A stretch of DNA of 64,000 nt from a virus. Its lineage: Duplodnaviria > Caudoviricetes. The notes beneath the pieces are model-generated. The model was not told where the DNA came from. It ran no database searches and was given only the letters and a program-made list of their open reading frames with translations. A program made the translations under genes and the position numbers. The stretch spans positions 13,760-77,759 of IMG/VR virus record IMGVR_UViG_3300023283_000263; one strand, 5' to 3'. The first letter of the stretch is position 1. Each line of letters begins with the position of its first letter. Positions 4,458-63,995 of this stretch are shown here, in pieces.

Positions 4458-5011
4458 TCGTCGCGGGCGTGGACCCCTCCCTACGGGGAACCGGAGTCGT
4501 CGTCCTCCGCGCCGGGGAGGTGCTAGAAGCAGAAACGGTGCAGGCCGCGACCCCGGGGTCGCGCTGTCCGCGAGCCCGGCTCGCGCGGGGCGCCGATTTG
4601 GCGCGGCGGGTGATCGACGTAGCGGCGGCTGTTCGCCGGCCGTCCCCGGGCCTCGTGGCCGTCGAGGACTACGCCTTCGCCGGGTCCCGGCGCCTCGTGG
4701 ACCTCGTGGAGCTAGGGACGTTGATTCGCGCGGATTTCGACCGACTCGGCGTTACCTGGGCGGCCGTCGGGGCCACTCAACTCAAGAAGTTCGCGACCGG
4801 CCGAGGCCGGGGCGGGAAGGACGAGGTGAGGGTAGGCGCCTACAAGCGCTGGGGATTCGAGCACCCGAGCAACGACGTCGTCGACGCCTACGTCCTAGCG
4901 CGCGTGGCCCAGGCCGTATATTCGTTGCTCCTGCGGCGCTCTTCCCACCTGCTCAAGCACGAACACGAGGTGGCGGAAGCCGTCGCCGTTGCGAACAAGC
5001 TATCGATCTGA
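4454..5011 (+). CDS. RuvC-like Holliday junction resolvase
   Basis: MIVAGVDPSLRGTG, VAVEDY, LKKFATGRG...K, NDVVDAYVLA. Confidence 0.85.
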   Translation: MIVAGVDPSLRGTGVVVLRAGEVLEAETVQAATPGSRCPRARLARGADLARRVIDVAAAVRRPSPGLVAVEDYAFAGSRRLVDLVELGTLIRADFDRLGVTWAAVGATQLKKFATGRGRGGKDEVRVGAYKRWGFEHPSNDVVDAYVLARVAQAVYSLLLRRSSHLLKHEHEVAEAVAVANKLSI

Positions 5012-5039
5012 CATCTTACCCGGCAACAGGAGGTACCCC

Positions 5040-6104
5040 ATGCCGACGCAACACGAGAGGCCCGAAACCCCGTTCGACGAGAGCGAGGAGGAGTTCGAGG
5101 AGTTCGAGGAAGTCGAGGTCCCGGACTTCGACTCTCTCAAGAAGCCCGAGCTGGTCCAGTTCTTCGAGGAGTTCGGCGACCAGGCGGAGGGCGAGGCCCC
5201 GAGCGCCGAGGAGTTCAAGAAGCTCCCGGTCGGGAAGATGCGGCCTCTCCTGAAGGCGCTGTTTCCCACCGGCGAGAGCCTGGAGGACCCCGACGTCACG
5301 GGGCTCGACGCCTCCGATTCGCTCCACAAGATCATCGTCGAGGTGTCCAACCTGAAGGACGAGACGGCCGTCGTCGCTTTCATCGCGTCGCGGGCGGACG
5401 AGGCGGAGTGCCGGTCGATCCAGATCGGCGGGGCCCTCTCGCACGCTCGTCAGAACGGCTGGGCCGGGGACTACCCGGATTTCTGGGAGTTCGTCGAGCA
5501 GGAGATCGGTCTCCGCAAGCGCAAGGCTCAGACCCTGATGCAGTGCTACGACGCCCTGGTCGAGTGCGGCGTGAAGTGGGCCGAGGCGGAGAAGGTCGGC
5601 TGGACGAAGCTCCGCGTCGTGGCTCGGGTGATCAAGCCGGACAACTACCGCGAGTGGCTCAAGACCGCGGCCGAGATGTCTCGCCACGATCTGGAGCAGA
5701 TCGTCCGGGAGGCGCTCGACCCCGGGGAGCAGGGCAGCGGCCGGGCGTCCGGCGACAGCACGCCGATCAAGAAGCTCTCGTTCTCGGTCCACGAGGATCA
5801 GGTCGAGACGATCGAGGAGGCGATCAAGCAGGCGAAGGCGCGGGCCGAGACGGAGTTCGACGGCCAGGCGCTGGAGCTGATCTGCCTGGAGTTCCTCGGC
5901 CAGTCGCCCGCGTCGAGTCGGGTCGCGGCGAACGCCGACCCCTTCGAGCTGCTCCGGTCCGCGATGACCGCGATCAAGGAGAAGTACGAGAAGGAGGACC
6001 CGGCCGACGGGCATCGAGCCGCCGGCGCCGCCGTTTCGGACGATTTCCGGGAAATCTTCGACGAGTACGACGACGGGCCGGTCGAGGAGCCGCTCGACGG
6101 GTAG
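5040..6104 (+). CDS. Hypothetical acidic protein with a possible helical DNA-binding segment
   Basis: Long ORF with AGGAGG RBS; FWEFVEQEIGLRKRKAQTLM resembles a DUF3102-type HTH. Confidence 0.6.
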   Translation: MPTQHERPETPFDESEEEFEEFEEVEVPDFDSLKKPELVQFFEEFGDQAEGEAPSAEEFKKLPVGKMRPLLKALFPTGESLEDPDVTGLDASDSLHKIIVEVSNLKDETAVVAFIASRADEAECRSIQIGGALSHARQNGWAGDYPDFWEFVEQEIGLRKRKAQTLMQCYDALVECGVKWAEAEKVGWTKLRVVARVIKPDNYREWLKTAAEMSRHDLEQIVREALDPGEQGSGRASGDSTPIKKLSFSVHEDQVETIEEAIKQAKARAETEFDGQALELICLEFLGQSPASSRVAANADPFELLRSAMTAIKEKYEKEDPADGHRAAGAAVSDDFREIFDEYDDGPVEEPLDG

Positions 6105-6123
6105 AGGCGCTACGCTCTCGGGT

Positions 6124-9190: not shown

Positions 9191-9219
9191 CTTCCCGGGG
9201 GCCGGAAGGAGGCGTTTTC

Positions 9220-11322: not shown

Positions 11323-13168
11323 CGTCGGCGAGCGCTTTGACCCGGGGGCTCGCAGCGTTCGGCCGTCGGCGCGATCGTTCCTGACGCTGGAGATCACGAT
11401 CCGCAAGCGCCTGGAGCGACGCTGGTTGGAGCAGGTAGCGAGGCCGGCGCAGCGGAGGATCCGGCGCGCGGTCGCGCGCCGCGACTTCGACGCTGCCAGG
11501 GACGCGGCCCGCGCGATCTCTTTCGACCCGGTGATCGAGGGCCAGGAGGGGTTCCTCCGCACGATGGCGCTGTCGGCGGTCGTGCTCGGGGCTTCTTTCT
11601 TCTCCGGCGACGCGAGCGATACCGTGTTCGTCGACGGAGGGGTCCCCGAGGAGGCGGAGATCGCGGCGAGCGCGCTCCTCGGCTTCCTGCAGGACGGCGC
11701 GGCCGAAAGCGTCCGGGAGGAGGCCCTGCGCCTGATCGACGCCGTCGAGGCCGCGGTCGCGGCGGATAGGTTCAAGCAGGACGAGATCGACGTCGCCCCG
11801 GAGACGCCTGCGGGCCTGCGCCGAGCGCTGCAATCCATCGCCGAGCCGAGTCCAGAGAGTCGCCCCCCGATAGTGGCGAGTCCTCGGGATTTCGCGACTC
11901 GGCTCAACCGGGCCGTCGCGCGCGGCGGGATCCAGGGTACCGGCATCGGCGCGAACCTGTCGACGAGTCGGCTGATCCAGTTCGGGGCCCTCGCCCAGGC
12001 CGAGGCGCAGGGCGAGCAGAGCTATCAGATCACGGAGATTCTCGACGATCGGACTTGTCCTTTTTGCCGGGGGATGCACGGTAAGGTGTTCGAGGTCGCC
12101 CCGGCGCAGGACAGGCTCTTCCGCCAGCTCAGGGAGACGGACCCTCTGGCGCTGAAGTCGGCGTTCCCATTCCCGTCGACGAATCAGGCAGCCATCGCCG
12201 CGTTCTCGCGTCTCTCGAACGACCAGCTGCGAGAACTCGGCCATGACACGCCCCCGTATCATCCCTGGTGTCTACCTGGGGACGCTCGTATAGCGTCCTG
12301 TGGTCCGATCGCGGGCGAGAGTCGTCGCTGGTTCGATGGTCAGCTCGTCGTCGTCGACACGGCCCGAGGCAACCACCTCCGCCTGACCCCGAACCACCCG
12401 GTACTCACGGATCGCGGATGGGTCGCGGCGGGCTCGCTCGATGAACGCGACCGCGTAGTCGAATGTCGCGGCGTCCAGGGGCCGGAACGCCGTCTGGTGC
12501 CAGAGCATCAGGACGTCCCACCCACCGCGGAGCAGGTGTTCGAGGCGTTTCGGCGTTCTAGCGGCGTGACGACCCGAGAAGTGCCAGGAACCCCTGAATA
12601 CTTCCACGGCGACGGGCGCCGCGGCGAGGTCGACGTTGTACGGGCCGATCGCCTTCTGGGGCACGACGTCGGACACGCCGCGGTTTTCGAGTGCGCGCAT
12701 TACGGCTCTCTCCAGATCGCTGCTGCGCGGGCGCTGTTCGCGCGTTTGCGCGCGTTTGCAGAGGGAATCTACGGAGTGGCGCGAGCCGCGCGAGGCGCGA
12801 TGGGCGGCTTCGACCTGGCGCCGGCGTTCGCGGTTGCTCATGCGCTTCCATCGTGCCCTCACGGCGTTGCTCCGGCTTCGCACGACGCCGGCGGCGCGGA
12901 GGAATCGGAGCACCGTGGTCTTCGAGACGCCGAGATTCTGCCCGATCTTGCTCGCCGGTTCCCCGGACGAGTAGCGTTCGACCACGTCGTCGGGGTCCGG
13001 CGGGAGCCATTTTCGGGCCAGGTATACAACCTCGAAACCGAGGACGGCTATTATGTAGCGGACTCGATAGTGGTGAGTAACTGCCGCGGAACCGTCGTCT
13101 CCGTCGGGACCGTCCCCGACGAGCAGATCACCGGCTTCCAGCCCGTCAGGGGCGCGATTCCGGTCTGA
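11306..13168 (+). CDS. MuF / SPP1 gp7-like head morphogenesis protein, intein-containing
   Basis: LDDRTCPFCRGMHG and PPYHPW|CRG motif, the latter interrupted by a Hint domain. Confidence 0.85.
   Translation: MTAPLSVGERFDPGARSVRPSARSFLTLEITIRKRLERRWLEQVARPAQRRIRRAVARRDFDAARDAARAISFDPVIEGQEGFLRTMALSAVVLGASFFSGDASDTVFVDGGVPEEAEIAASALLGFLQDGAAESVREEALRLIDAVEAAVAADRFKQDEIDVAPETPAGLRRALQSIAEPSPESRPPIVASPRDFATRLNRAVARGGIQGTGIGANLSTSRLIQFGALAQAEAQGEQSYQITEILDDRTCPFCRGMHGKVFEVAPAQDRLFRQLRETDPLALKSAFPFPSTNQAAIAAFSRLSNDQLRELGHDTPPYHPWCLPGDARIASCGPIAGESRRWFDGQLVVVDTARGNHLRLTPNHPVLTDRGWVAAGSLDERDRVVECRGVQGPERRLVPEHQDVPPTAEQVFEAFRRSSGVTTREVPGTPEYFHGDGRRGEVDVVRADRLLGHDVGHAAVFECAHYGSLQIAAARALFARLRAFAEGIYGVARAARGAMGGFDLAPAFAVAHALPSCPHGVAPASHDAGGAEESEHRGLRDAEILPDLARRFPGRVAFDHVVGVRREPFSGQVYNLETEDGYYVADSIVVSNCRGTVVSVGTVPDEQITGFQPVRGAIPV
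12269..13081 (+). mobile_element. Intein (271 aa) inserted in the HPWCR motif of the MuF-like protein
   Basis: Cys1 block A CLPGDARI, block B LTPNHPVLT, block F VYNLETEDGYYVAD, terminal Ser-Asn followed by Cys+1. Confidence 0.9.
12272..12985 (-). CDS. HTH plus Vsr/DUF559-like endonuclease encoded antisense within the intein
   Basis: HTH YSSGEPASKIGQNLGVSKTTVLRFLRAAGV; nuclease motifs SDLERAV, IGPYNVDLA, VEVFRGSWH, LLRGGWDVLMLW. Confidence 0.8.
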   Translation of the reverse strand: MVERYSSGEPASKIGQNLGVSKTTVLRFLRAAGVVRSRSNAVRARWKRMSNRERRRQVEAAHRASRGSRHSVDSLCKRAQTREQRPRSSDLERAVMRALENRGVSDVVPQKAIGPYNVDLAAAPVAVEVFRGSWHFSGRHAARTPKRLEHLLRGGWDVLMLWHQTAFRPLDAATFDYAVAFIERARRDPSAIREYRVVRGQAEVVASGRVDDDELTIEPATTLARDRTTGRYTSVPR

Positions 13169-13306
13169 GGGGCGGGGGCGAGCTGTAGATCGGCGATTTT
13201 CTCGGGCCCCTTAGGGAAGACGAGGACGAGCGTCACCTTCTGAGGTGATGGAGGCACGCTCTAGGAGCGCAGGATCAGCGCCGCGACGGGTAGAGAGGAT
13301 CGGGCG

Positions 13307-13597
13307 GTGGCCGAAGACGCCCCGCGACCCCGGGGTCGCGGAAAGTGGACGGAGATTCGACGAGAGACCGGGCTCGTCGAGTACGTGTGCGAGCACGGAG
13401 TCGGGCACCCTGCCGTCGGGTCCGCGCTCTGGCAGGCCGAGACTCGCCGCGAGGACGAGGAAGCGTGGATGATCCACGGCTGCGACGGATGCTGCGCGCG
13501 GGACGACTTTCCCGGGACGGCGATCGAGTCGCTCAAGCGCGCCCACCAGATCATCCGCGTCCTGAAAAGGAGGCTCCGAGAGTGCAGGTCATCCTGA
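13307..13597 (+). CDS. Hypothetical Cys/His-rich protein
   Basis: CEHGVGHP and HGCDGCC motifs; RBS upstream. Confidence 0.6.
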   Translation: MAEDAPRPRGRGKWTEIRRETGLVEYVCEHGVGHPAVGSALWQAETRREDEEAWMIHGCDGCCARDDFPGTAIESLKRAHQIIRVLKRRLRECRSS

Positions 13598-13806: not shown

Positions 13807-13808
13807 CC

Positions 13809-14225: not shown

Positions 14226-14312
14226 AGAAGCTCAAGCGAAGGAAGACGCCGGTCGCCCGGGGGCGCGCGACCCGGGAAGGCGCGGCTCCGAGGGGGGGCA
14301 CGGTCGTCGGGT

Positions 14313-14555: not shown

Positions 14556-14632
14556 GCGATGTGCAGCCCGTCGAGGGGACTTGAACCGGCGCGGGCAGAC
14601 GAGACCATTCCACGCTAGGCAAGAGCTGGCGG

Positions 14633-14839: not shown

Positions 14840-15424
14840 TTCCATGCTTTACCCCACGAAGGCCGTTGAGGACGCGCTTGAGGCCCTCGCAGAAGGTGCG
14901 AAGCAAGGGTAGAAAGTCGGCGCTCGCCGACATCCCAGGAAGTCAGTGAACGCTGCCTCAGGAGTAGATAGATGCGCGTCCTCGTAACCAGGAGGCCGCC
15001 ACCCGAGGGGGTAGAGAAGCGAGGCTCCGACGAGCCGGACGCGGAGAATAGGCAACTGCGACCCCGGGGTCGCGGCGACCAGGCGAGGGCCCGGTGGTAC
15101 GACGTCCTGGCCGGGGTCTCGCTCTGCGTCGCCTGGGCGGGGGCCGGGGAGGAGACGGCCCTCTGGGTCTCGGGGGCCCTGATGGCGGGCCGCGTGCTGG
15201 CGTTCGGACTGCCGGGTCGATCCTGACGCAAAAAGCGGCCACGGTTACGAGAATCGTCGCTCTCCCGGGCTTTAGCGGCGGGAGAATGCGCCTCGCGCCG
15301 GCGCGGACCTTGCTACGACGAGGGGGCGCGCGGCCGGGGTCGGTAGGACAGCGTTTTTTGCTCAAGTCCTCGGACCGGCCAGCCGAAGAGAGAGAGGAGA
15401 GGTATGAAGCGAGGAGGACGGAAA

Positions 15425-15631
15425 ATGGACAGCAACACCCGGCAAGGGCTGCTCGAAGCGGCGGCGTTGATCGAAGAACGCGCCGCCGCGTACTGGGAGC
15501 GGACGCGCGGCCGACGCCGCGGCGAGAGCCGCGACGCGCCTCGCCTGCGGCGCGAAGCGCTCGTCGTCGCACGAGAGCTGGACGCGCTGACGCAGCAGTG
15601 CCGCGCTCGGGCTGAGGAGGAGGCGGAGTGA
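15425..15631 (+). CDS. Hypothetical protein
   Basis: ATG after GGAGGACGG RBS, downstream of the promoter motif. Confidence 0.6.
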   Translation: MDSNTRQGLLEAAALIEERAAAYWERTRGRRRGESRDAPRLRREALVVARELDALTQQCRARAEEEAE

Positions 15632-15843
15632 AAGCTGGAACGACCCCGGGGTCGCGCGTCGATCCGACCGAGGGCCCTGTTTTCCAGGAGGCGGTGATCC
15701 AGCCGAGGGGCGGAGGGGCCGTCCTGCAGGTCCGCCGGTGCGACGACGGGCTGGTCCACCTGGTGATGGGCAGCGTCGTCGCGGTCCTCGACGAACGCGA
15801 GGCGCGCGTCTTGGCGCGCGCTCTGGCGGCAGAGACGAGGTAA
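15628..15843 (+). CDS. Hypothetical protein
   Basis: GTGA overlap with the previous gene. Confidence 0.5.
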   Translation: MKAGTTPGSRVDPTEGPVFQEAVIQPRGGGAVLQVRRCDDGLVHLVMGSVVAVLDEREARVLARALAAETR

Positions 15844-17060: not shown

Positions 17061-17465
17061 ATGACGAGGGTGACGACGTTTCTCGCGACGATGCTGGCCG
17101 CGCTGATCTGCGCCGCCGCGGCCGGGGCCCAGGAGACGCGGGCTCTCCGCCCGGAGGCCGGGGTCTACCAGGTGACGCTGGAGGTGCCGGCGGTCGAGCC
17201 GGGCTTCCAGACTCCGCAGTCCGCGGGCGTCGTGGTCGACGACGGGCGGATCGCCGCGTGCGTCCAGGCCGCCCCCGGCGACGTGGTGGATCTGCCGTTC
17301 CAGGTCGACGCGGTCGACGTCGGCAGGACGGCCACGGCCAGGACCTGGGCCGGGGTCGACTGCTCGGGGGACCGGAGCCCGCCGGCCGTGAGCAAGACCA
17401 CGGGCGAGGAGGTGACGTTGACCTTCGAGCTACTGCCGCCGCAGGCGCCGTTCCTGACGTTCTGA
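17061..17465 (+). CDS. Secreted hypothetical protein
   Basis: Signal peptide MTRVTTFLATMLAALICAAAAGA|Q; AGGAG RBS. Confidence 0.65.
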   Translation: MTRVTTFLATMLAALICAAAAGAQETRALRPEAGVYQVTLEVPAVEPGFQTPQSAGVVVDDGRIAACVQAAPGDVVDLPFQVDAVDVGRTATARTWAGVDCSGDRSPPAVSKTTGEEVTLTFELLPPQAPFLTF

Positions 17466-17554
17466 GGAGCCGGGGGGCCGTCGGGTGAGCGCCGGCGGTC
17501 CCCGCGACCCCGGGGTCGCGGGCGTCACCTTTCCGGGGTCGACGGCCACCTACG

Positions 17555-17612
17555 AGCGAGGGCTAGCCCGCGTCGAAATTGAAACCCGGTTGTCAGATTC
17601 GCGGCCCTCGTT
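17555..17612 (+). ncRNA. TIGR-like dual-spacer unit 0 within a closing hairpin
   Basis: AGCCCG-CGTCGAAAT-TGAAACCCG-GTTGTCAGA-TTCGCGG, enclosed by CGAGGGC/GCCCTCG. Confidence 0.75.
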
Positions 17613-17628
17613 AAAAGGAGACCCCCAG

Positions 17629-18195
17629 ATGAGACTGGTGGCGATCTTTCGCGAGATGCTCGAAGCGCAGGAGACGATCGACCTCGACGGCGTGGAGAAG
17701 ACGCTCGTCGAGTGGTGCCTGGGGGACGACGACGAGGGGCTGCTGCTGGAGGAGGCCGTGCGGGCCGGCGTCGCCTACGCCGGTCGGGAGGCGATCCGCC
17801 AGATGCGGAAGGAAGCGTTCGCGGAGGAGTCCGCGGAACCCGCGGCCGCTCCCGCTCCTCGCCTGAAGCGGGCCGCGAGCCGCACCGAGGTACGGTCCGG
17901 CGAGGTGCTGCCGGACGTGTCTTACCGCTACGCAGACCTGCTCGGCTACCTGCTGAACGCTCCGGGGCTTCCGGCGATTCGCCTGGCCGATGCGGACGCG
18001 GAGCGGCTCGACGTCGAGGCCGACTACGCGCAGGCCAGCGGCGACTCCTATCACCGGAAGGCTGCCTGGCTCCGGCTCATGGGTAAGGAAATGCGGCGCC
18101 AGGGTCGGGGCAAACGCGTCGCAGACGTGTTCTCCGTCTCCGAGCTGCGTCGCGCGGCTCGGTCCGCCGCCTTCAACCCTAGGCGGCGAGGGTAG
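17629..18195 (+). CDS. Hypothetical protein embedded in the TIGR-like locus
   Basis: ATG after AAAGGAG; lies between unit 0 and units 1-3. Confidence 0.7.
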   Translation: MRLVAIFREMLEAQETIDLDGVEKTLVEWCLGDDDEGLLLEEAVRAGVAYAGREAIRQMRKEAFAEESAEPAAAPAPRLKRAASRTEVRSGEVLPDVSYRYADLLGYLLNAPGLPAIRLADADAERLDVEADYAQASGDSYHRKAAWLRLMGKEMRRQGRGKRVADVFSVSELRRAARSAAFNPRRRG

Positions 18196-18200
18196 TCGAT

Positions 18201-18411
18201 GAAACGCGCTCGGAGAAGAGCCCGCAAGCCTCGTGTTACCCATTGGGCATGTTCGCCGGTCCGGGCGCTTTCTTTTTCGACGTCGACCGAGCCCATTAGT
18301 ACCGTGATTACCCAAGCCGATCGTTCGCCGATCGCCGTCGATTTTCACGAACACCAGCCGAGCCCGGGGTGCGCGTGTTAACCGCCGCCGAGCTTCGCCG
18401 GTTGGTGTTCG
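18201..18411 (+). ncRNA. TIGR-like stem-loop array: three dual-spacer units at a 71-nt period
   Basis: AGCCCR at 18219, 18290, 18361; 9-nt spacers; loop repeats TGTTACCCA, TGATTACCCA, TGTTAACCG; TTCGCCG; each unit closed by a different 11-13 bp stem. Confidence 0.85.
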
Positions 18412-18474
18412 CTCTTTCGTGGAGACTCGACAATCCGGCCCCCTACGACGGGGCATCGAAAGGAGCGTGAGACC

Positions 18475-26333: not shown

Positions 26334-26750
26334 ATGCGACGCAAGCTACGACGAAGGAAGCGAGGCGCGACCCCGGGGTCGCGTCCGCCGGCGCCGGAAG
26401 AGACCGCGCCGGACGCGCCGCCCGACGAGGTCTCGGACGAGACCGGGCACCCGATCAAGGTCGGGTTCGCGATCCGCGCGACCCCGCGGCGGCTGCAGAG
26501 CTGGACGGGCGAGGTGGCCGCCATCAGGCGCCACCCGCGCAAGGGCCGCGTCTACCTGGAGGTGCTCCGGGACGGGACGGGCTTCCCGGCGACCGAGCGC
26601 GAGAACCGCGCCAGGCCGGGCGCCGCGCCCGAAACGCGCACGGTCCACTACGCGCTCCCGGCCGAGTGCAAGGTGATCCCCAAGTCGGCGCGCTCGGAGA
26701 GGGCGAGACGGATCGTGGTCCGCGACGTGGGCGAGGAGAACGAGGCGTGA
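26334..26750 (+). CDS. Hypothetical protein
   Basis: AAGGAGGACGG RBS. Confidence 0.5.
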   Translation: MRRKLRRRKRGATPGSRPPAPEETAPDAPPDEVSDETGHPIKVGFAIRATPRRLQSWTGEVAAIRRHPRKGRVYLEVLRDGTGFPATERENRARPGAAPETRTVHYALPAECKVIPKSARSERARRIVVRDVGEENEA

Positions 26751-27360: not shown

Positions 27361-28860
27361 GTGCCGCGCAGGACGCTCAAACGCAGGTCCCGACTCCCCG
27401 ATCGACCCGACGTCGACGAGTCGGCGTCCGACCGCCCCGCGACCCCGGGGTCGCGGGGGCGCGTCGCCGGCAAAGGGTCCGGGTGGAAGGTGATCCAGGG
27501 GGACTGCGTCGAGGTCCTCCGGCGAGCCCCGGCCGCATCGGTCGACGCCGTCGTCTGTGACCCTCCCTACGGGCTGAGCAAGGAGCCGCACGCCGCGGAG
27601 GTGCTGCGTCGATGGCTCGCGGGGGACGACTACCACCACCGCGGGTCGGGATTCATGGGCAAGTCCTGGGACTCGTTCGTCCCGGGCCCCGCGACCTGGC
27701 GCGAGGTTTTTCGCGTCCTCAAGCCCGGGGGGCACGCGCTGGTGTTCGCCGGGACCCGGACTCAAGACCTGATGGGGATAGCACTGCGGCTCGCCGGGTT
27801 CGAGATCAGGGACTGCTTGGACTGGGTATACGCGACGGGGTTCCCCAAATCGCTCGACGTCGGCAAGGCGATCGACAACGCGGCAGGGGTAAAGCGGGAA
27901 GTGATAGGTGTTGAGGAAAGATACAACATGCCGAGTGGTATTGTGAATGCTGGGCGAGGAGCAGAAGCGCGGACTAAAATCCAGCGCAAAATCACGAAAG
28001 CCGCGACCGACACCGCTAAGCGCTGGGACGGTTGGGGCACGGCTCTCAAGCCTGCCCATGAGCCGATCATCCTCGCCCGAAAGCCCCTCGCCGGCACCGT
28101 CGCGGCGAACGTCCTGGAGCACGGGACGGGGGCGTTGAACATAGGCGGCTGCAGGGTCCCGGCAGAGAAGGCCACCGGCTGGGGCGGCGGTGGTAGCAAG
28201 TTATACGAGGGCGGATTGTCTCGGGAGGGCGGTGAAGCCAGGCCGCAGGAAAAGGGCCGGTGGCCTCCGAACCTTCTGCTCGGTCACGCGGCGTGTTGCG
28301 GGGACGACGAGTGCGGGCCTTGTTGCCCGGTGGTGGAGGTGAACCGGCAGAGCGGGTTTAGTAAAACACCAAAGACGGTAAGTAGAGGCCCGTCGCGTGG
28401 TACGCCGGCTGATTACACGCCGAACCCGTCCGGCGAAGTGCAGCGCGGGGTTCCCTGTCACGTTGATTCCGGCGGTGGTTCTCGCTTCTTCCAAGTCTTC
28501 AGGTACCAGGCGAAACCTGAGAGGAAGGAGCGCGACGCCGGGTTGGCGGAGGCCGGGTTCGACGCGCATGAGGTGCAGAAACGGAACCCGAGTGGTCTAG
28601 CGAAACGGCGATCCGAGGCCGGAACCGTGCGTCCGTTGCGAAATCCGCACCCGACCGTCAAGCCCGTCGAGCTGATGCGGTGGCTCGTGCGGCTCGTGAC
28701 GCCGCTCGGCGGCGTGGTGTTGGATCCTTTCGCGGGGTCCGGGTCCACGGGGATCGCGGCCGTGAAGGAGGGCGCGAGGTTCATCGGGATCGAGATGAAC
28801 GAGGAGTACGCGCAGATCGCGCGGGCGCGGATCGCCGCGGCCGTCGAGGAGGAAACATGA
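27361..28860 (+). CDS. DNA N6-adenine/N4-cytosine methyltransferase (beta class)
   Basis: IQGDC, catalytic DPPY, HPTVKP, SAM-binding VLDPFAGSGSTG. Confidence 0.92.
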   Translation: MPRRTLKRRSRLPDRPDVDESASDRPATPGSRGRVAGKGSGWKVIQGDCVEVLRRAPAASVDAVVCDPPYGLSKEPHAAEVLRRWLAGDDYHHRGSGFMGKSWDSFVPGPATWREVFRVLKPGGHALVFAGTRTQDLMGIALRLAGFEIRDCLDWVYATGFPKSLDVGKAIDNAAGVKREVIGVEERYNMPSGIVNAGRGAEARTKIQRKITKAATDTAKRWDGWGTALKPAHEPIILARKPLAGTVAANVLEHGTGALNIGGCRVPAEKATGWGGGGSKLYEGGLSREGGEARPQEKGRWPPNLLLGHAACCGDDECGPCCPVVEVNRQSGFSKTPKTVSRGPSRGTPADYTPNPSGEVQRGVPCHVDSGGGSRFFQVFRYQAKPERKERDAGLAEAGFDAHEVQKRNPSGLAKRRSEAGTVRPLRNPHPTVKPVELMRWLVRLVTPLGGVVLDPFAGSGSTGIAAVKEGARFIGIEMNEEYAQIARARIAAAVEEET

Positions 28861-29573
28861 GCGAGCGCACGAGGATCGAGGCGAACGAAGCCAGGCGCCG
28901 GGTCCCCGGAGAGGCGATGGAGTCGCATCTGTGCGACGACCGGAGGGCGTCGGTCTCGCCCTGGTGCGTCGGCAACTCGAAGCTCGGGCTGAACGTCTTC
29001 ACGTACTCGAAGGCTCCCGGGCGCGATCGGACGTGCCCCGGGGCGACCGAGTTCTGCGAGTCCGTGTGCTACGCGATGCGGATCATGGACAACCCGCACC
29101 TTCGGATCATCTACGAGGCGAACGAGAAGAGGGGCGCCGACCTGCCCGACCTCCCCGCCGAGGCTCGGCTGGTTCGGGGCCACGTCTCCGGGGACTTCGA
29201 CTCGGCCGAGTACGTCCGCGCCTGGATCGACCTGGTTCGTCGGCGCCCGGACGCGACGTTCTGGTTTTACACGCGGAGCTGGAGGATCGCCGAGATCCGT
29301 CCGGCGCTGGAGGAGCTTCGGGCCCTGCCGAACGTCGAGGTGTGGGCCAGCATGGACCCGAGGTGCGAGGATCCCCCCGAGGGGTGGCGGGTCGCGTGGA
29401 TCGACTCGGACGCGCGACTGTGGCGCGACCCCGGGGTCGCGGGGAAGTCCTACTACTACCACGGTCGCCGCGTCCCGGTCTGCCCGGAGCAGACCGGAGA
29501 GCGTGAGAACTGCGAGGCGTGCGGCTACTGCTTCCGCGGGAAGGCTGGTGACCTGGTGTTTCTGGAGCACTGA
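28857..29573 (+). CDS. Gp88-like protein (radical-SAM-like Cys motif)
   Basis: GNSKLG, TCPGATEFCESVCYA, RGHVSGDF, FWFYTRSW, CPEQ...CEACGYC. Confidence 0.7.
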   Translation: MSERTRIEANEARRRVPGEAMESHLCDDRRASVSPWCVGNSKLGLNVFTYSKAPGRDRTCPGATEFCESVCYAMRIMDNPHLRIIYEANEKRGADLPDLPAEARLVRGHVSGDFDSAEYVRAWIDLVRRRPDATFWFYTRSWRIAEIRPALEELRALPNVEVWASMDPRCEDPPEGWRVAWIDSDARLWRDPGVAGKSYYYHGRRVPVCPEQTGERENCEACGYCFRGKAGDLVFLEH

Positions 29574-29618: not shown

Positions 29619-29975
29619 ATGGAGAGAGAGGTTAGCCCGGACCGCGTCGATCGGTACGTCGTCCGCGCTGCGTCGAACCTGCGCGACCTGATCACGACGC
29701 AGGGGGTGGCCGGTAGCGCGATCGATCGCACGCTCCGCGCCGCCGTCCGGCACGGCGTATTCCTCGCCGGCGGGTCGATCGACGACTCCCCCGGGACGCG
29801 CTTGGCGTCGGATCTCGGGCCGAACGAGGTCGCGAAGATTCGATCGGCCCTGGCGCGGCCGAGCGCGGATCGCGACGAGATCGCTCGCGAGCACGGGTTG
29901 ACGAGAGCCCAGCTCGACAAGATCGCTCCGGAGGACGCCTTTCTCCGGAAGATGCGAGACGACGCGGGGTGGTAG
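29619..29975 (+). CDS. Hypothetical protein with a possible C-terminal HTH
   Basis: DRDEIAREHGLTRAQLDKI; GGAGG RBS. Confidence 0.5.
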   Translation: MEREVSPDRVDRYVVRAASNLRDLITTQGVAGSAIDRTLRAAVRHGVFLAGGSIDDSPGTRLASDLGPNEVAKIRSALARPSADRDEIAREHGLTRAQLDKIAPEDAFLRKMRDDAGW

Positions 29976-30312: not shown

Positions 30313-30693
30313 GTGGACAAGAAGGACCCGGAAGCGCCTGAGGGGGTCGTCGAACGCGCGAAGGCGGCGGCCCTGCGGCGGGCTGGCGTGCTGCAGTGGA
30401 AGATGCGGCGAATGGCCGAGAAGATGCAGGTCCGCCGGGCTGAAGACCAGACGCGGCGCGGGGGACGGCGCTCGGTCGGCGACCGGAGGCGCTCCGAGCG
30501 CAGGCGCGCTAGATTCGAGGCTCGACAGCGGCGCGGAATCAGGAAGAGTCGGCCGCGGCGGACGATCAGGAAGCTCAGGCCGGGCGCGACCCCGGGGTCG
30601 CGCCGGTGGTCCGCGGAGAAGTGCAAGAGGCGCAGGAGGAGCAAGGCGGCGCGAGCCGCTCGCCGGGTCAACCGGCTGAGGGCCGCTCGCTGA
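30313..30693 (+). CDS. Hypothetical highly basic protein
   Basis: AAGGAGG RBS; Arg-rich, so may be a GC artefact. Confidence 0.35.
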   Translation: MDKKDPEAPEGVVERAKAAALRRAGVLQWKMRRMAEKMQVRRAEDQTRRGGRRSVGDRRRSERRRARFEARQRRGIRKSRPRRTIRKLRPGATPGSRRWSAEKCKRRRRSKAARAARRVNRLRAAR

Positions 30694-33878: not shown

Positions 33879-34270
33879 TGGGCTGGGTGTTCGAGGTCTC
33901 GCCGAATCCTCGCGTCGACGCCGACGGGGAGCCGTTCTCGACCACCGCCGGGGACGGCGATCGCCTGCGCCTGATGGCGACGATCGAGGAGGCGATGGAC
34001 TGGCTCCTGTGGAGGGAGTGCGAAGGAGGGGCCGTCACGATCAAGCTGCGCCGCGACCCCGGGGTCGCGGAGGACGACCCGCCCGTTCCTCCTCCGCTCG
34101 CGGCCGACGGAATCGAGCCGTCGCTCGGCTGGCTCGCGTGGCACGAAGCGCACGAAGACTGCCCGTACTTTCTAGGAGGGCCGTGCGAGTACCCCGGAGA
34201 CGACGCGGCGGGCGACGCCCTCGACTACGCCGTGCCCCTGGAGGACATCGACGATGCCGGAGACGAGTAG
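33878..34270 (+). CDS. Hypothetical protein
   Basis: TAATG overlap. Confidence 0.55.
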   Translation: MGWVFEVSPNPRVDADGEPFSTTAGDGDRLRLMATIEEAMDWLLWRECEGGAVTIKLRRDPGVAEDDPPVPPPLAADGIEPSLGWLAWHEAHEDCPYFLGGPCEYPGDDAAGDALDYAVPLEDIDDAGDE

Positions 34271-38382: not shown

Positions 38383-38452
38383 GGCGGGCGCGACCCCGGG
38401 GTCGCGGATCCGAGGTGGCCGCCCCGAGGGGCCCGGTCTATCCTCCATCAAC

Positions 38453-39955
38453 GTGGCGGAGAAGCAAGACGGACCGCTGTCCGGGGAGGACCTGCGCGAG
38501 GACGGCGGGGTCCTGCAACCCGAGCAAGGAGGGGGCGTGGCGGTAGAGCGATGCCGGAAAGACGGCGAGGCCGGCTACCGGGCGATGCCAGGCGGCCGGT
38601 GCATCACTGGGCCGAACGCGAAGCGGCGGGCGGAAGCCGTCGCGGCGGCCATGCGCGCCAAGGCGGATCTGGCGCTCGCGGACGTCGAGGACGCGGTCCT
38701 CGGGCTGACCGACGAGCAGATCGAGCTGCTCTGGCCCGCCGCGAAGCAGGACCTGACCCCCCGGAGCGGCGAGAGCACCGACGACTTCGTCTCGCGCTGC
38801 ATCGAGGCTGAGGTCGAAGCCGGTCGGCCGCAGGATCAGGCCGCGGCCATCTGCTTCGATAAGGCGCGCCGCGCGGGTCGAGACGCGCCGGAAAAGTCCG
38901 CCGCAGAGAGGCGAGACGCCGACAACTTCTTCGTCATCGAGGACGGGGTCGCGAAGGACCTCGGGAACGATCGCCCCGAGGGGGCCAAGCCTCTGGGTGA
39001 CCGAGAGGTCATCTTCGCGCTGATCTCGGAGAAGGGCGGCTCGAACACCGCGCGGAGCCTGGGCGACGTCAGCAGGTCCGAGGCGCTGGAGACGGCGGCG
39101 AACGCCGCGGACCGAGACCCGAACGCGAAGGTATTCGTCGGCAAGGCCGTCGGCCGCTTCGAGGGTCAGACGCTCTTCCAGGACATCGCGCAGTTCCGCG
39201 GGGAGAAGAAGGACGAGCCGAGCGACGATCGACTCCACCCGCGCTGGATCGAGAAGTCGGACTGGATCAAGAAGGCCGACGAGGAGCTGCAGATCGTCTG
39301 GGGGGAGGTCTACGTCCCGGATTTCCCCGACTCGCAGGGCGACATGATGTCGGCCCAGGAGGTGCGCAAGATCGCTCACAAGTTCCTGGCGGACGGCAGG
39401 ACTCGGCAGATCGACGTCAACCACGACAACCAGGTCCGCAAGGGGTGCGCCGTGGTCGAGTCGTTCGTCGCCAGGCCTGGGGACCCCGATTTCATCGCCG
39501 GAGCCTGGGTCGCCGGCGTCCACGTCGGGGACCGCGGTCTCTGGGAAGCCATCAAGGCCGGCGACTTCAACGGGTTCTCGATGCAGGCGCGGGTGATGGT
39601 CACGGAGAAGATCGTCGAGCTGGACCTGCCGGTCGACATCGAGGGCGAGACCGAGGAGGCGCTGGACGACGGCGGGGGCGGGCTGCACGCGCACCGCTTC
39701 ACCGTGCGGATCGACGAGGACGGGCAGATCGCCGGCGGCCGGACGAGCGTCGAGCTGGGGCACTGGCACTCGATTCTCCGCGGCAGCGTGACCAGCACGA
39801 GCATCGCCGAGGGTCAGGTCGCGCCGCGCGACGGGACCCACCGCCACCGCTACTCGTTCCTCGACCGGCTCTTCCCCGACCTGGCGCCGCGGGTCTCGGA
39901 CGCGGATCTGGACCCCCCGATCGAGTCGACGGAGGGCGAGGAGGTGGCGGGCTAG
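38453..39955 (+). CDS. XkdF-like prohead serine protease with N- and C-terminal extensions
   Basis: KADEELQIVWGEVYVP, DSQGD, IDVNHD, VVESF, LWEAIKAGDFNGFSM. Confidence 0.8.
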   Translation: MAEKQDGPLSGEDLREDGGVLQPEQGGGVAVERCRKDGEAGYRAMPGGRCITGPNAKRRAEAVAAAMRAKADLALADVEDAVLGLTDEQIELLWPAAKQDLTPRSGESTDDFVSRCIEAEVEAGRPQDQAAAICFDKARRAGRDAPEKSAAERRDADNFFVIEDGVAKDLGNDRPEGAKPLGDREVIFALISEKGGSNTARSLGDVSRSEALETAANAADRDPNAKVFVGKAVGRFEGQTLFQDIAQFRGEKKDEPSDDRLHPRWIEKSDWIKKADEELQIVWGEVYVPDFPDSQGDMMSAQEVRKIAHKFLADGRTRQIDVNHDNQVRKGCAVVESFVARPGDPDFIAGAWVAGVHVGDRGLWEAIKAGDFNGFSMQARVMVTEKIVELDLPVDIEGETEEALDDGGGGLHAHRFTVRIDEDGQIAGGRTSVELGHWHSILRGSVTSTSIAEGQVAPRDGTHRHRYSFLDRLFPDLAPRVSDADLDPPIESTEGEEVAG

Positions 39956-39991: not shown

Positions 39992-41647
39992 ATGGCTCGA
40001 CGCAAGCTCAAGGTGAACATGCTGGAGGACGGCGACTGCCGTTTCCTCTCGCTTGTCCCCACGGGGGCAAACCGCGCGCCTTTTCGGAAGTTCGCCGCCG
40101 AGGGGCGCCCGCTGGAGCCGCTCGGCCCCGGCGTGCCGCGCGACTTTGCCGAGGTGTTCCGGCAGGACGAGCCGACGAAGACCGTCGACGGCGTCCCGGG
40201 CTTCCCGGCCGAGGCGTTCGCCGTCGTGCCGGACCCGGAGAAGGTGTCGACCTGGAAGCTGCCGCTCTTCGATCGCCCGGAAGACGTGCCGGACGAGCCG
40301 TCCGTGCGGCGGACCGCCGCCGCGGCGCAGGCTCTGGAGCCGGAAGGGTTCCGGGGGAGGCAGGTCGAGATCCCGGAGGGGGTCTCTCGGGCGGCGGTGA
40401 AGCGCCGCGTGCTTCGGGCCTGGCTAGCGGCTCGCCCGGATGCTACCCGTAGGGACGCGCCCGACGTTCTGAAGTCGGAGGGGGGACTGGACATGATCGA
40501 CATGGGCAAGGTCTTCGTGCGGGAGGAGCGCCGGAAGCAGGCGCCGCCCGCTAGCGCGGCGACGGCCCCGAGCGGCACGCGCCCCGCGGACGAGAGCATC
40601 GAGCAGGACCCGGTGTCCGAGGGCAAGGGCACGCGGCAGCGGACCGCCGCGAGCGTGGCCGATGTCCTCCGCAGCGAGACGCTGGCCGTCGCCGTGGCGA
40701 ACGAGGTCGACCTGGAGGCCGCGAAGGCCGCGATCCAGGAGGCCGGCCTCAGCGTCGACGACGCCCGAGAGGTGGAGGGCGCGACCCTCTTCGTCCAGGG
40801 CGCCGCCGAGGGGGCGGATCTGGCCGAGGACGGTCAGACCTACAAGCTGAACGACGAGATCGCTGTCATCTTCCGGGCCGAGGAGCGGATCAAGCAGTTC
40901 GTCCCGGAAGGCGGGACGACCTCGTTCACCGAGAACCTGCGCGCCAAGTCGTTCTTCCCGTCCTTCATGTCGGCCCAGGACGCCCTCGGCGAGACCATCG
41001 TGCTGGCTCTCCGGGAGTCGGAGTCGCCGGAGGACGCGGCCGAGATCATCGAGAAGGCCGTCGACGAGTTCGGCGACACGGTGCTCTCGATGACGAGGGG
41101 CCTGCCGGCCGACGCCTTCAAGCTGGAGGCCGTCGTCCGCGGCAAGTCCTTCGCCAAGGAGCGCGACCCCGGGGTCGCGGCCGGCGAGGCGGAGTCGGAG
41201 GGCGACGCGAAGGGGAGCGAGGCGCAGAAGCAGGAGGCGCCCGAACCCAGGTCCGGGGAGTCCAGGACGGACTTCATCGGTCGCTGCCGAGAGGCCGGCG
41301 CCTCGTTCGGGGACTGCTCTGAGAAGTTCGAGCAGGCGCAGAAGTCCGAGGCGACCAACGAGCCGCCCGCGTGGGCCGCGAAGCTGCAGGAGTCCGTCGA
41401 CGGGCTCGGGGAGCGGCTGGGCGCGGTCGAGAAGCAGGCGAAGGACGCCGTCGACAGGAGCAAGACCGTCGAGAAGGCGATGAAGGGGCGGGTCACGGGC
41501 GAGCCCGAGGCCGATCCGGAGCCGAGCGACGAGGAGGAGAACGAGCGGACGGCCCGGGGGAACCGGCTGCGACGGCGCAAGAGCGCCGGCGAGCCGCCGC
41601 TTCTGGACACCGCTACTCGGCGGTTCGCGGAGAACCGCATCGCGTAG
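39992..41647 (+). CDS. Probable capsid scaffolding protein
   Basis: Lies between protease and capsid; acidic, coiled-coil C-terminus. Confidence 0.65.
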   Translation: MARRKLKVNMLEDGDCRFLSLVPTGANRAPFRKFAAEGRPLEPLGPGVPRDFAEVFRQDEPTKTVDGVPGFPAEAFAVVPDPEKVSTWKLPLFDRPEDVPDEPSVRRTAAAAQALEPEGFRGRQVEIPEGVSRAAVKRRVLRAWLAARPDATRRDAPDVLKSEGGLDMIDMGKVFVREERRKQAPPASAATAPSGTRPADESIEQDPVSEGKGTRQRTAASVADVLRSETLAVAVANEVDLEAAKAAIQEAGLSVDDAREVEGATLFVQGAAEGADLAEDGQTYKLNDEIAVIFRAEERIKQFVPEGGTTSFTENLRAKSFFPSFMSAQDALGETIVLALRESESPEDAAEIIEKAVDEFGDTVLSMTRGLPADAFKLEAVVRGKSFAKERDPGVAAGEAESEGDAKGSEAQKQEAPEPRSGESRTDFIGRCREAGASFGDCSEKFEQAQKSEATNEPPAWAAKLQESVDGLGERLGAVEKQAKDAVDRSKTVEKAMKGRVTGEPEADPEPSDEEENERTARGNRLRRRKSAGEPPLLDTATRRFAENRIA

Positions 41648-45184: not shown

Positions 45185-45418
45185 ATGTCCGAGGGATTCG
45201 TGCCCGGGGAGGCCGAAGCAGCCGCGGAGGACTTCGCCGCTGAGGAAGGCGCGGCGGAGGATCGCTCGGTCGATGACCGCGAGGCGGAGGAGATCGATCC
45301 GCGACCCCGGGGTCGCGAGGACGGGAAGGCGCGAGTCGACGCGCCGCGAGACGTGCCGTCGCGCGCGGGCGTCGGCGGGCAGTTCTACGACGACGGCGAA
45401 GGTCGGCGGCCGGCGTAA
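45185..45418 (+). CDS. Small acidic hypothetical protein
   Basis: GAGGAG RBS. Confidence 0.45.
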   Translation: MSEGFVPGEAEAAAEDFAAEEGAAEDRSVDDREAEEIDPRPRGREDGKARVDAPRDVPSRAGVGGQFYDDGEGRRPA

Positions 45419-48106: not shown

Positions 48107-48142
48107 ACCGCGACCCCGGGGTCGCGGATCGGGGCAGATCGC

Positions 48143-51253: not shown

Positions 51254-51263
51254 GGAAGAGTGA

Positions 51264-52250: not shown

Positions 52251-52253
52251 CAG

Positions 52254-54973: not shown

Positions 54974-55009
54974 CGCCGCGACCCCGGGGTCGCGGGAGGA
55001 GGTTCGATA

Positions 55010-59375: not shown

Positions 59376-59384
59376 CGAGGGATC

Positions 59385-61232: not shown

Positions 61233-61245
61233 GGAGAGACGCCAG

Positions 61246-63690
61246 ATGGCGTTCTTCGATCGAAGCACCGGCGCGCTGCTGGAGAAAATCACCTGGCTGC
61301 AAGGCCGGCGCGTATTCGTGGACGCCGCGAACGGCGACGACGATACCGGCGACGGCAGTTCCGGGTCGCCGTTCCAAACGCTGGTGCGCGGCGCGCAGGA
61401 GATCCGCAGCGGTTTCGGCGACGTCCTGATCGCCTTGCCCGGGCTCTATCGCGCGGATGAGGTCGTTTTCTCTAATGTAACCGATTTCGCCCTGATCGGT
61501 TCGGCGGCGAGCGTTGCTGGGGCGCCGGGCTCCCAAGGGATAGACGTGTCGGACGTCACTCCGAGTTTTACAAGCGGGAACCCGGCCAAGTTGACGTATA
61601 TGGTACCGTCGGGCGCTCAGCCCGCGCCGCGGCAAGGCGTCGTTGTCTATGGCGCTGTAGAGAACGGGACGTCGCGCATCAACGGCGCGGCCATAGCCCT
61701 GTCGTCGTCGGACGGCCAATTCGACGCGACGGCGCTTGGACCGGGGGAGACAGGCGACTACCCGCCGGCCCAGCTCCCGCGCGTGATCCGCGCCGGGATC
61801 ACGCTAGATCGGTGCAAGCGCGTCGTCGTAGCCGGGTGGACGTTCGGCGTTTCGGAACTGAATCCGGAATTCACCGGGCTCCATATCCACGGATGCGCGG
61901 ACGTCACGGTGACACAGTCGCAGTTCCCGCGATCCTACCTGGGAATCACCAGCGACAAAAAGATATTCCAAGGTCCGGAATCGCCTAGTTTCCCGTCTCT
62001 CGGGAGCAGCGACTTCGGCAACACTAATGTGAATATCGAAGGAAACATCATCGGACCGCAGGTGTGGATCGTCGGCGGGTTTTTTGATTTTGGTCGCGAC
62101 CTCCAGATGCCCGTCGTCAGCCTGGCAAATGGTGCCGGCGCGGCGTTCGCCAAAAACGTCTTCACGGCAGGCGTCGTAGATAGTGGTGTCACTAACGTGA
62201 TCCCTTACGAAGACGCAGGTGCGGAAGGAATTATCCACGTCGCGATCAACCCTGGGCTCGGCCATTTGTTTTCAGGCAACCAGTTCTTCGACCGATTCGG
62301 GGTCGCGCCCGCGACATACGACACGGTGTTTCATTTCGACGCGCCAGAAGGCGCGGAAGAAGCATTTCAACAGGCGAGAAACAACCAGACATTCGTGCTG
62401 CCCGCCGCGGACCCGCTTGCGAAGACGTTCGCCCGGGGGAACTTCTTCGACGGCGCCACGAGTGGTAGCCCGGTGGTTCTGGACGATGTCGAAGGGCTCC
62501 AGGACCTGGAGCCGAACAGCATCCCCAACCAGTCGTTTCTGAACACCTGGGGCGAGCTGGTATGGCGGCGCCGGCCGATAGACGCAATCGAACTGGACCC
62601 GTCGATGGGTCGCCTGGTGGCCCAGCAGTCGTTCCGCGGAGCGGTGTGGGTCGACACGATCGCCGGGCAGGCTGGGACGGAGCTGCCCGTCGGTACGCCC
62701 AGCAACCCCGTGAACAACCTGGCCGACGCACTCGTCATCGCTTCGACCAACCAGATTTCGGAGCTGAGAATCCGCGGAACGATTACCCTCGACCAGCCCG
62801 CCCCGGGCTTCAAGTTCCAGGGCAACCCGTTCGGTACGCTCGACCTGGGGGGCCAGGACCTGAACTTCGCGTCCATGCAGCAGCTCCAGGTCACTGGGTC
62901 TGGTACGGGCGAAGTGTTCGTCGAGAACTGCGTCTTCGTCGGGGTGTCCGGCATCCACGGTCGCTTCAACCAGGTCGGTTTCCAAGGAACGTTCGCTCCG
63001 TCCGCCGGGGTCTTGCTGGTGAACGACTCGGGCAAATCAGACCCGAACATTGATCCGGTCTTCGACCTGTCTTCCGGTGTCAGCGGCGCGATCCGCGAGT
63101 GGTCAGGCGGCATCCAGGTAGAGAACGTGGCGCAGCCCGGGCAGGTGGTGTCGCTCGACATCTCGGCGGGCCGCGTGGGCCTGGGCGCGACGAACACCGA
63201 CGGGACGATCACGGTGCGCGGCGTCGTCGACCTAGACGACCAGTCGGCTGGATCCCAGGTCGTCCGCGGCGACAACCTCGAAGAAGCGAGGGCGGCGTCG
63301 GCGGCCGTCGACGCGAGATTACCCGCCGACCCCGCGGACGAGAGTTTGCAGCAAGCGGCCCACGCCCAGACCCAAGCCGACGTCGCGGCTCTCAACGACT
63401 TGAGCCCGGCCGACGCGGCGGACGCCGTGTGGGACGAGGCGCTATCCGGCCACCAGGTCGCCGGGTCTGCCGGGCAAGCGCTGGAGTCGAATCGCGACCA
63501 CGTCCAGGGGCGCAAGCAGATCGACACCTCGAACTCGGACCAGTGGCAGGAAGTCGTGTTCGACCGGGACACGGGCGCGGAGATCCAGCGATACGACCTG
63601 CGCGACCAGAACGGCGCCGCCGTCTCCGACGCGAACAACCCGCTCGTCGACCCGACCGGCGTGTTCATCGCCGAGAGGATCCCGGTCTGA
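61246..63690 (+). CDS. Tail spike / receptor-binding protein with a probable beta-helix
   Basis: VFVDAANGDDDTGDGSSGSPFQT (DUF1565-like); pectin-lyase-like periodicity. Confidence 0.65.
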   Translation: MAFFDRSTGALLEKITWLQGRRVFVDAANGDDDTGDGSSGSPFQTLVRGAQEIRSGFGDVLIALPGLYRADEVVFSNVTDFALIGSAASVAGAPGSQGIDVSDVTPSFTSGNPAKLTYMVPSGAQPAPRQGVVVYGAVENGTSRINGAAIALSSSDGQFDATALGPGETGDYPPAQLPRVIRAGITLDRCKRVVVAGWTFGVSELNPEFTGLHIHGCADVTVTQSQFPRSYLGITSDKKIFQGPESPSFPSLGSSDFGNTNVNIEGNIIGPQVWIVGGFFDFGRDLQMPVVSLANGAGAAFAKNVFTAGVVDSGVTNVIPYEDAGAEGIIHVAINPGLGHLFSGNQFFDRFGVAPATYDTVFHFDAPEGAEEAFQQARNNQTFVLPAADPLAKTFARGNFFDGATSGSPVVLDDVEGLQDLEPNSIPNQSFLNTWGELVWRRRPIDAIELDPSMGRLVAQQSFRGAVWVDTIAGQAGTELPVGTPSNPVNNLADALVIASTNQISELRIRGTITLDQPAPGFKFQGNPFGTLDLGGQDLNFASMQQLQVTGSGTGEVFVENCVFVGVSGIHGRFNQVGFQGTFAPSAGVLLVNDSGKSDPNIDPVFDLSSGVSGAIREWSGGIQVENVAQPGQVVSLDISAGRVGLGATNTDGTITVRGVVDLDDQSAGSQVVRGDNLEEARAASAAVDARLPADPADESLQQAAHAQTQADVAALNDLSPADAADAVWDEALSGHQVAGSAGQALESNRDHVQGRKQIDTSNSDQWQEVVFDRDTGAEIQRYDLRDQNGAAVSDANNPLVDPTGVFIAERIPV

Positions 63691-63995
63691 TGCAGGTCAT
63701 AGGAGGCGGGCCGGTCGGTATGTTCGGCGCCGGGGACGGGGTCGTCCCCGGGGTCGTAGGTCTGTTCTCGCCGTTCGAGGATCTGTCGCTCCAGGTCCCG
63801 ATAGACGCTGAGGTCCTTCTCCGCCCCGTTCTGGCGGGGCGCGCCTCGGTCGCGGCTGTCCTCTCTGGCGAGGCCCGCTTCGACCGCGCCGTCTCGGGGC
63901 GAGCGAGGACCTCTTCGGCGGTCTCCGGCGACCCCGGGGTCGCGCCGGCGGTGGGCGGGGCCCCGATCGTCCGGCCGAAGCGGCCCGGGGAATAG
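63690..63995 (+). CDS. Hypothetical protein
   Basis: TGATG overlap with the previous gene. Confidence 0.45.
   Translation: MQVIGGGPVGMFGAGDGVVPGVVGLFSPFEDLSLQVPIDAEVLLRPVLAGRASVAAVLSGEARFDRAVSGRARTSSAVSGDPGVAPAVGGAPIVRPKRPGE

Follow-up and report, generated by a model that had tools for sequence, protein, structure and literature searches.

A dispersed 18-bp palindrome in a Delepquintavirus-like phage, and a different dyad in its relatives, as putative sites for a dimeric DNA-binding protein

Introduction

Why would a tailed phage maintain one and the same 18-bp palindrome at 23 places along its genome, between genes as well as inside them? The question arises from a 64,000-bp stretch of DNA (hereafter the window), which comprises bases 13760–77759 of the 77,759-bp virus record IMGVR_UViG_3300023283_000263. 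Coordinates are those of the window unless marked as genome coordinates, which refer to the whole record. A preliminary description of the window had recorded the repeat and put forward several explanations for it. Here we examine the distribution of the palindrome, report that related phages carry a comparable network built from a different dyad that is under purifying selection, and propose that the sites are recognized by a dimeric protein that is probably encoded by the phage.

Results

A pattern search of the window reproduced the 15 exact and three near-exact copies listed in the preliminary description (Table 1). Dinucleotide shuffles of the window (n = 100) contained a mean of 0.06 copies and Markov models of order 0–5 expect 0.00008–0.002 copies, which bears out the earlier view that the count is far beyond chance. 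The whole genome contains 19 exact copies, three distinct one-mismatch sites and one two-mismatch site, giving 23 sites at a density of about one per 3.4 kb over 77.6 kb; the site located within the 127-bp terminal repeat of the record occurs there twice and was counted once. The 18-mer is a perfect gapless palindrome. Mismatches are confined to its outer two bases, the 14-bp core is invariant at 23 of 23 sites, and no degenerate or decayed copies were found in the whole genome. As the 40 nt on each side of the copies are unrelated between sites, the repeated unit is the palindrome alone and not a longer element.

An independent IMG/VR contig (L005), which is 95–99% identical to the phage over 8 kb, carries the same three sites, both mismatch variants among them, and this rules out the assembly artefact that the preliminary description had considered. 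The copy at 13323 is kept in this contig despite about seven substitutions in the 60 nt upstream. When IMG/VR was scanned for the exact motif, no other entry was found. Across 185,579 scanned genomes, the 18-mer occurs as single copies in many GC-rich bacteria, at a hand-estimated rate that is consistent with chance. Equal abundance in unrelated GC-rich genomes, which had been named as a possible refutation, was thus not observed: such genomes hold single copies only, a family of haloarchaeal transposable elements described below excepted. None of the approximately 240 genome and metagenome matches to the 18-mer belongs to a relative of the phage. The 18-mer is a real, strongly non-random, DNA-level feature.

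The major capsid protein (MCP) of the phage shares about 52% identity with its counterpart in Stenotrophomonas phage DLP5 (Delepquintavirus), and the next-nearest MCPs are those of Rhizobium phage TM16, Rhodobacter phage RcZahn and a group of Vibrio phages. The distance between DLP5 and the phage is comparable to that which separates DLP5 from TM16, RcZahn and the Vibrio phage. The replication module, which encodes an AAA ATPase, a lambda-O-like initiator, DnaB, primase, an SF2 helicase, UvsX, resolvases and PolA, is syntenic with that of these relatives. Judging by its proteins, the phage belongs to the Delepquintavirus-like siphoviruses as a distant member, and its predicted bacterial host is GC-rich. 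All of its 95 genes, called by codon usage, are on the plus strand and occupy 91% of the genome. A terminase- and A1-based search of IMG/VR returned no close relatives. Homologues of the GP88-like protein were dropped as a guide to synteny, all of them being in unrelated phages.

DLP5, DLP3, TM16, RcZahn and Vibrio phage vB_VhaS-a each carry 18–35 dispersed copies of a different dyad, TGCAAT-NN-ATTGCA. Counting sites with no more than one mismatch, there are 35 in DLP5 (26 of them exact TGCAAT-CA/TG-ATTGCA), 34 in DLP3, 18 in TM16, 19 in RcZahn, 23 in vB_VhaS-a and none in the phage of this record, compared with 0–1 in shuffled controls. Metagenomic relatives have similar sites at about one per 4 kb, namely the same dyad in contig L249 and TGCAAGCGCTTGCA in contig L247. 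In vB_VhaS-a, one half-site is usually imperfect (TGAAAT or TGCACT). The dyad goes unmentioned in the published descriptions of DLP3, DLP5 and RcZahn, and nothing relevant was returned when the literature was searched for the motif strings.

Overall, DLP5 and DLP3 are 82% identical at the nucleotide level. Their dyads have diverged far less: 22 of the 25 alignable sites are identical, with five substitutions in 350 motif positions vs about 17% divergence in the 150-nt flanks, and at one site the CA centre has flipped to TG, the identical base step as read on the opposite strand. The low divergence of the motif and this flip show strong purifying selection on a strand-symmetric feature of the duplex. 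The DLP5 centres occur both ways, 18 vs 8, although the genome is coded on one strand. The comparison thus shows the sites to be DNA-level elements and a heritable trait of the phage clade, which, as far as alignments of the relatives can reveal it, is held by strong purifying selection in these relatives. Since phages that share the network have MCPs that are only 43–55% identical, it is old. As the phage is no farther from DLP5 than the dyad-bearing TM16, RcZahn and Vibrio phage are, its GC-rich 18-mer is best seen as a lineage-specific replacement of an ancestral TGCAAT-NN-ATTGCA site. Two loci display the motifs of both kinds in similar positions. The RuvC-like gene has its local motif at nearly the same place in the phage and in DLP5, whose orthologue contains its own dyad about eight codons from the position of the 4546 copy. 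A site just upstream of the protease gene is kept in all four TGCAAT-type relatives, and the phage copy at 38389 is also upstream of this gene.

The placement of the 23 sites is mixed, with intergenic, gene 5′-end and internal positions, but it is not random. Nine to ten sites are intergenic (2.5 expected), and 12 have a gene start or stop no more than 45 nt away (3.7 expected). Several fit into the short interval that separates a stop codon from the following Shine-Dalgarno sequence, and three of these abut GGAGGAGG directly. The layout of the 54977 copy, in which the motif is followed by a Shine-Dalgarno sequence and ATG, recurs at genome 1667, genome 10528 and several DLP5 sites. Intergenic positions account for about one third of all DLP5 sites, and the order there is often stop codon, site, AGGAG, ATG. 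The sites are 280–700 nt away from promoter-like motifs and do not coincide with them. A promoter and terminator scan of 18 kb gave two σ70-like matches with no association to the sites; neither overlaps one, and about 88 nt separate the end of the nearer match from the 27438 copy downstream of it. A role outside transcription initiation is favoured by this separation from promoter-like motifs and σ70-like matches.

The remaining 13 sites are inside genes and use all three phases, and the peptide readings ATPGSR, RDPGVA and RPRGR given in the preliminary description are correct. These coding copies are located in variable loops or tails of the proteins. On whether they arose by in-frame insertion or by recoding, the evidence is divided. 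The peptides encoded by the motif in the primase, the RuvC-like gene and the ATPase C-terminus fall within insertions or extensions relative to homologues and look like insertions. The GP88-like copy is in a hypervariable loop of unchanged length and, having no six-residue insertion relative to homologues that are 55–61% identical, arose by recoding. Relatives carry the dyad in alignable conserved helices without any indel (the ATPase of L247 and gp049 of DLP5). Sites can therefore arise by substitution under selection, and in the proteins aligned they seem simply to be retained where the protein tolerates them. The earlier suggestion that selection acts on the DNA and not on a peptide is supported by this recoding within genes, together with the clade-wide, orientation-free dyad and the purifying selection on it. 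No terminal repeats, target-site duplication or conserved element beyond the core were found at the phage copies.

The same 18-mer is abundant in some haloarchaea. The 185,579-genome scan found 35 copies in a Salinirussus metagenome-assembled genome (MAG), eight in a Natronomonas MAG and further copies among other Halobacteriales. There, the 18-mer forms the centre of an 81-bp element that is identified as a miniature inverted-repeat transposable element (MITE) by its conserved arms of 31 nt, its terminal inverted repeats and the 3-bp TNA duplication of its target; the exact 18-mer is central to 61 of 66 complete elements. The ends of the MITE are ATACTGCYGGCTGTA and TACAGCCRGCAGTAT (L032:4513–4593 and about 80 other loci in L006–L124 and L128–L243). 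It occurs in both orientations, with at least 35 copies in the MAG of Salinirussus sp. LUM.44, and folds at −43 kcal/mol. An Rfam search with the MITE gave no match. The Salinirussus copies had prompted the idea that the phage is a haloarchaeal virus. This idea was rejected because these copies are MITE centres, the proteins of the phage match those of proteobacterial phages and its proteome is not acidic (median isoelectric point 6.2).

Several neighbouring features were noted in passing. Positions 17565–19380 contain a TIGR-Tas-like locus of five repeat units with paired 9-nt variable segments around an IS110/transposase-like gene of 278 aa, which has a PHROG transposase match. No spacer of the five units matches a half-site of the palindrome, which refutes the proposal that the 18-mer is a dual-spacer target of such a dual-guide system. 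Contig L005 lacks about 927 bp that correspond to positions 12255–13183 (genome 26014–26942), the intein region of a MuF-like head gene, and looks like an intein-free allele in a near-identical phage. The large terminase is encoded at 31297–33174. It is distinct from the 491-aa late-region protein encoded at 36303–37778, which shares 43% identity with Xanthomonas and Stenotrophomonas jumbo-phage proteins labelled ‘T5 A1-like / DNA transfer’. Positions 661–1002, which lie between the SF2 helicase and UvsX genes, encode a 113-aa member of the small conserved DLP5 gp060 family, which is present in all relatives and combines a basic, variable N-terminus with a conserved C-terminal domain of about 70 aa.

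Table 1 Palindrome copies in the window (ORF, open reading frame)
Class	Position	Context
Exact	4546..4563	In RuvC-like gene 4454–5011, codons 31–36, ATPGSR; indel-variable segment
Exact	13323..13340	16 nt after GTG of small ORF 13307–13597, RPRGR
One mismatch (first base T)	15057..15074	In small ORF 14972–15226; identical variant in L005
Two mismatches (first two bases AA)	15639..15656	11 nt after start of ORF 15628–15843; identical variant in L005
Exact	17503..17520	Intergenic, 37 nt after stop of 17061–17465
Exact	20519..20536	Intergenic after 20118–20450, or codons 3–8 of alternative ORF 20512–20805
Exact	23076..23093	Last codons of small ORF 22923–23102, RDPGVA; motif ends 9 nt before stop
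Exact	26366..26383	Codon 11 of ORF 26334–26750
Exact	27438..27455	34 nt (motif end to start codon) upstream of called start 27490 of N6/N4 DNA methylase gene; alternatively codon 26 of this gene, if its start is 27361
Exact	29424..29441	GP88-like gene 28857–29573, codon 190, RDPGVA
Exact	30585..30602	Arg-rich 126-aa ORF 30313–30693, codon 91
Exact	34052..34069	ORF 33878–34270, codon 59
Exact	38389..38406	Intergenic, 6 nt after stop of ClpP-like gene 37783–38382, upstream of XkdF-protease fusion gene 38453–39955
Exact	41162..41179	551-aa head-module gene 39992–41647, codon 391, RDPGVA
Exact	45300..45317	77-aa ORF 45185–45418, codon 39
Exact	48109..48126	Intergenic, 2 nt after stop at 48106, 16 nt before tape-measure start 48143
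Exact	54977..54994	Intergenic, 3 nt after stop at 54973, abuts GGAGGAGG-N7-ATG (55010)
One mismatch (first base G)	63927..63944	Inside 127-bp terminal repeat; same site as genome 54–71

Discussion

Combining these findings, we consider it probable, though far from certain, that each palindrome is a site for a homodimeric, sequence-specific DNA-binding protein which would most likely be encoded by the phage itself. The preliminary description had proposed a site for a dimeric protein, and the comparative evidence supports this proposal for what remain putative sites. In the model that we favour, the sites would together make up a network that spans the genome at about one site per 3.4 kb, in which bound dimers would be found mostly at cistron junctions (stop codon, site, Shine-Dalgarno sequence, start codon) and in tolerant parts of genes. 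The dimers would act on a genome-wide process and not on single promoters. As a first choice, they may serve as a transcription roadblock or insulator at cistron junctions, similar to a stoperator but symmetric; as a second choice, they may function in chromosome organisation or partition in the manner of KorB or ParB. The swap of TGCAAT-NN-ATTGCA for the 18-mer would imply that the binder was altered or replaced. For the parS-like partition site suggested earlier, no ParB-family protein was found in the phage.

A number of observations weigh against binding by a phage-encoded dimer. No binder was identified in Pfam and PHROG scans of about 60 proteins, in which the only DNA-binding matches were the O-like initiator (a weak winged helix-turn-helix, HTH), a TerS-like HTH protein and a small HTH-like protein of 118 aa. 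The small HTH-like candidates are encoded at 29619–29975 and, for the TerS-like protein, at 30701–31300; no homologues of the latter were found, and ESM Atlas gave no function for the product of 5040–6104. Among the proteins scanned, many of them ORFs without a family assignment, no integrase, repressor or ParAB was recognised. The recognition helix of the initiator was examined as a reader of the motif and rejected, as its residues show no clean covariation with the motif type. DLP5 gp114, a ParB_N protein encoded next to the terminase gene, belongs to a family common to DLP5, DLP3, TM16 and RcZahn. This family was not found in the phage by BLAST or HMMER and is also absent from vB_VhaS-a, so that the correlation breaks with a phage that has the dyad and lacks the protein, and gp114 was rejected as the binder. 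Furthermore, operators do not usually have a core as strictly kept as these 14 wholly invariant bp, the selection test covers the relatives only (DLP5 vs DLP3), the positional overlap of the phage sites with those of the relatives is not significant (two vs one expected), and the 11.5-kb L250, which is the closest relative fragment, shows no dyad.

A host protein, either nucleoid-associated or a regulator of the LacI/CytR type, might bind the sites instead and be recruited or titrated by the phage. Conservation of the dyad extends over phages of Vibrio, Stenotrophomonas, Rhizobium and Rhodobacter, no phage protein shows a clean correlation with it, and TGCAA-N4-TTGCA resembles CytR and PurR-type operators of the LacI family, a resemblance that we take as a lead only. 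Such a factor would nevertheless need the same specificity across two proteobacterial classes; to our knowledge, CytR and PurR are not known in all hosts of dyad-bearing phages, which counts against this explanation, and the phage of this record uses a completely different 18-mer. We therefore regard a host factor as unlikely. We give a slightly lower rating to replication, recombination or packaging signals (secondary initiator-binding, nicking or pac-like sites), even though the gene of the lambda-O-like winged HTH initiator (genome 6248–7297) is flanked by sites at genome 6228 and 7409, and sites at or adjacent to the initiator gene are likewise present in DLP5, TM16, L247 and L249. The iterons to which lambda O binds are dyad-symmetric and about 19 bp long, and the presence of the TerS-like HTH protein is compatible with a packaging signal. 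Origin iterons and pac sites, however, are normally clustered and do not occur once per 3.4 kb, the initiator gene of RcZahn has no site in its vicinity, and L250 has an initiator but no dyad.

A selfish micro-palindrome that spreads by insertion would keep reading frames intact owing to its length of 18 bp, and could be recognised in the identity of all copies and the absence of decayed ones, in the insertions and extensions of the primase, RuvC-like and ATPase proteins, and in the genuine Halobacteriales MITE that has the same 18-mer as its core. We consider it very unlikely, and the inserted micro-element of the preliminary description is disfavoured for the phage: the flanks are not conserved, terminal repeats and target duplications are absent, the GP88-like copy brings no six-residue insertion, the dyad of the relatives is recoded in conserved helices and held by purifying selection, and no candidate mobilising enzyme was found. 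Still a little less probable is a transcribed palindrome that acts as an RNA hairpin on mRNA processing, stability or translational coupling. The 18-mer does fold into a 7-bp stem with a CCGG loop (−11.5 kcal/mol), all genes are on one strand, three copies abut a Shine-Dalgarno sequence and others follow stop codons. Yet an intrinsic terminator would require a U-tract, which does not follow the 18-mer, and 13 copies are within genes in all three phases. Moreover, the dyad of the relatives is under strong selection and has its centre in both orientations; because it could form only a 5-bp stem with a 4-nt loop, judged too weak for a stable RNA hairpin, the property shared by the two motifs is one of duplex DNA.

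The identity of the phage 18-mer to the centre of the MITE deserves separate consideration. The two share the 18-mer exactly, but the phage lacks the arms of the MITE, which resides in a different domain of life. Given that perfect 18-bp palindromes number only 4^9, with GC-rich ones far fewer still, coincidence is plausible, and the match is probably one, with an a priori estimate of a few percent. There is a very slim chance that the phage and the MITE rely on one horizontally mobile DNA-recognition module, a hitherto undescribed cross-domain system of binder and site, in which case the lineage of the phage would have captured a new binder and replaced its TGCAAT network wholesale.

The putative network of dimer sites belongs to a known but unexplained class of dispersed phage dyad repeats. 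The closest known case is that of the Cluster O mycobacteriophages, whose 17-bp dyad TGTTCGG-N3-CCGAACA, present in 34 copies in Corndog, is predicted to be bound by a dimer (PMC4351075). Both have invariant inverted arms and tens of dispersed copies (about 30 per 70-kb genome), and both occupy a mixture of intergenic, gene 5′-end and internal positions with neither a promoter link nor a meaningful orientation (PMC4351075). The Cluster O phages differ in being an unrelated lineage with hosts of another phylum, and the repeat described here is a gapless 18-bp perfect palindrome. Unlike the Cluster O repeats, the trait is here traced across deeply diverged relatives, with one replacement of the motif and a measured signal of selection. 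The start-associated sequences of Cluster K mycobacteriophages are repeats located directly before the ribosome-binding sites of several genes (PMC4351075); these are asymmetric and include the ribosome-binding site, whereas only about one third of the phage sites are linked to starts.

At the stoperators of Cluster A mycobacteriophages, one bound phage protein stops RNA polymerase during elongation (PMC9283540, PMC6550527). Like the phage sites, stoperators number dozens genome-wide and are often found in short intergenic gaps or overlap gene ends. However, stoperators are asymmetric, orientation-dependent and bound by the monomeric immunity repressor of temperate phages, while the motif described here has a symmetric form, and its phage yielded no recognisable repressor, integrase or ParAB. 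The KorB operators of plasmid RK2 and the centromere sites of the plasmid-prophage N15 are scattered short palindromes on replicons of 45–60 kb, where a dimer of the ParB family partitions and silences. The phage differs from these in having no detected ParB-family protein, and its Vibrio relative lacks ParB_N yet keeps the dyad. DLP5 is a plasmid prophage with ParB_N proteins (PMC5834331).

Since the Cluster O report, dispersed phage dyad repeats have awaited an explanation, and they now have a second, unrelated and widespread group of carriers among phages of Proteobacteria, in one lineage of which the sequence of the network appears to have been replaceable wholesale. As DLP3, DLP5, RcZahn and TM16 are in culture, both the binder and its role are experimentally accessible. 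If the binder is a genome-wide silencer or organiser, a regulatory layer would be missing from the annotations of phages that are candidates for therapy.

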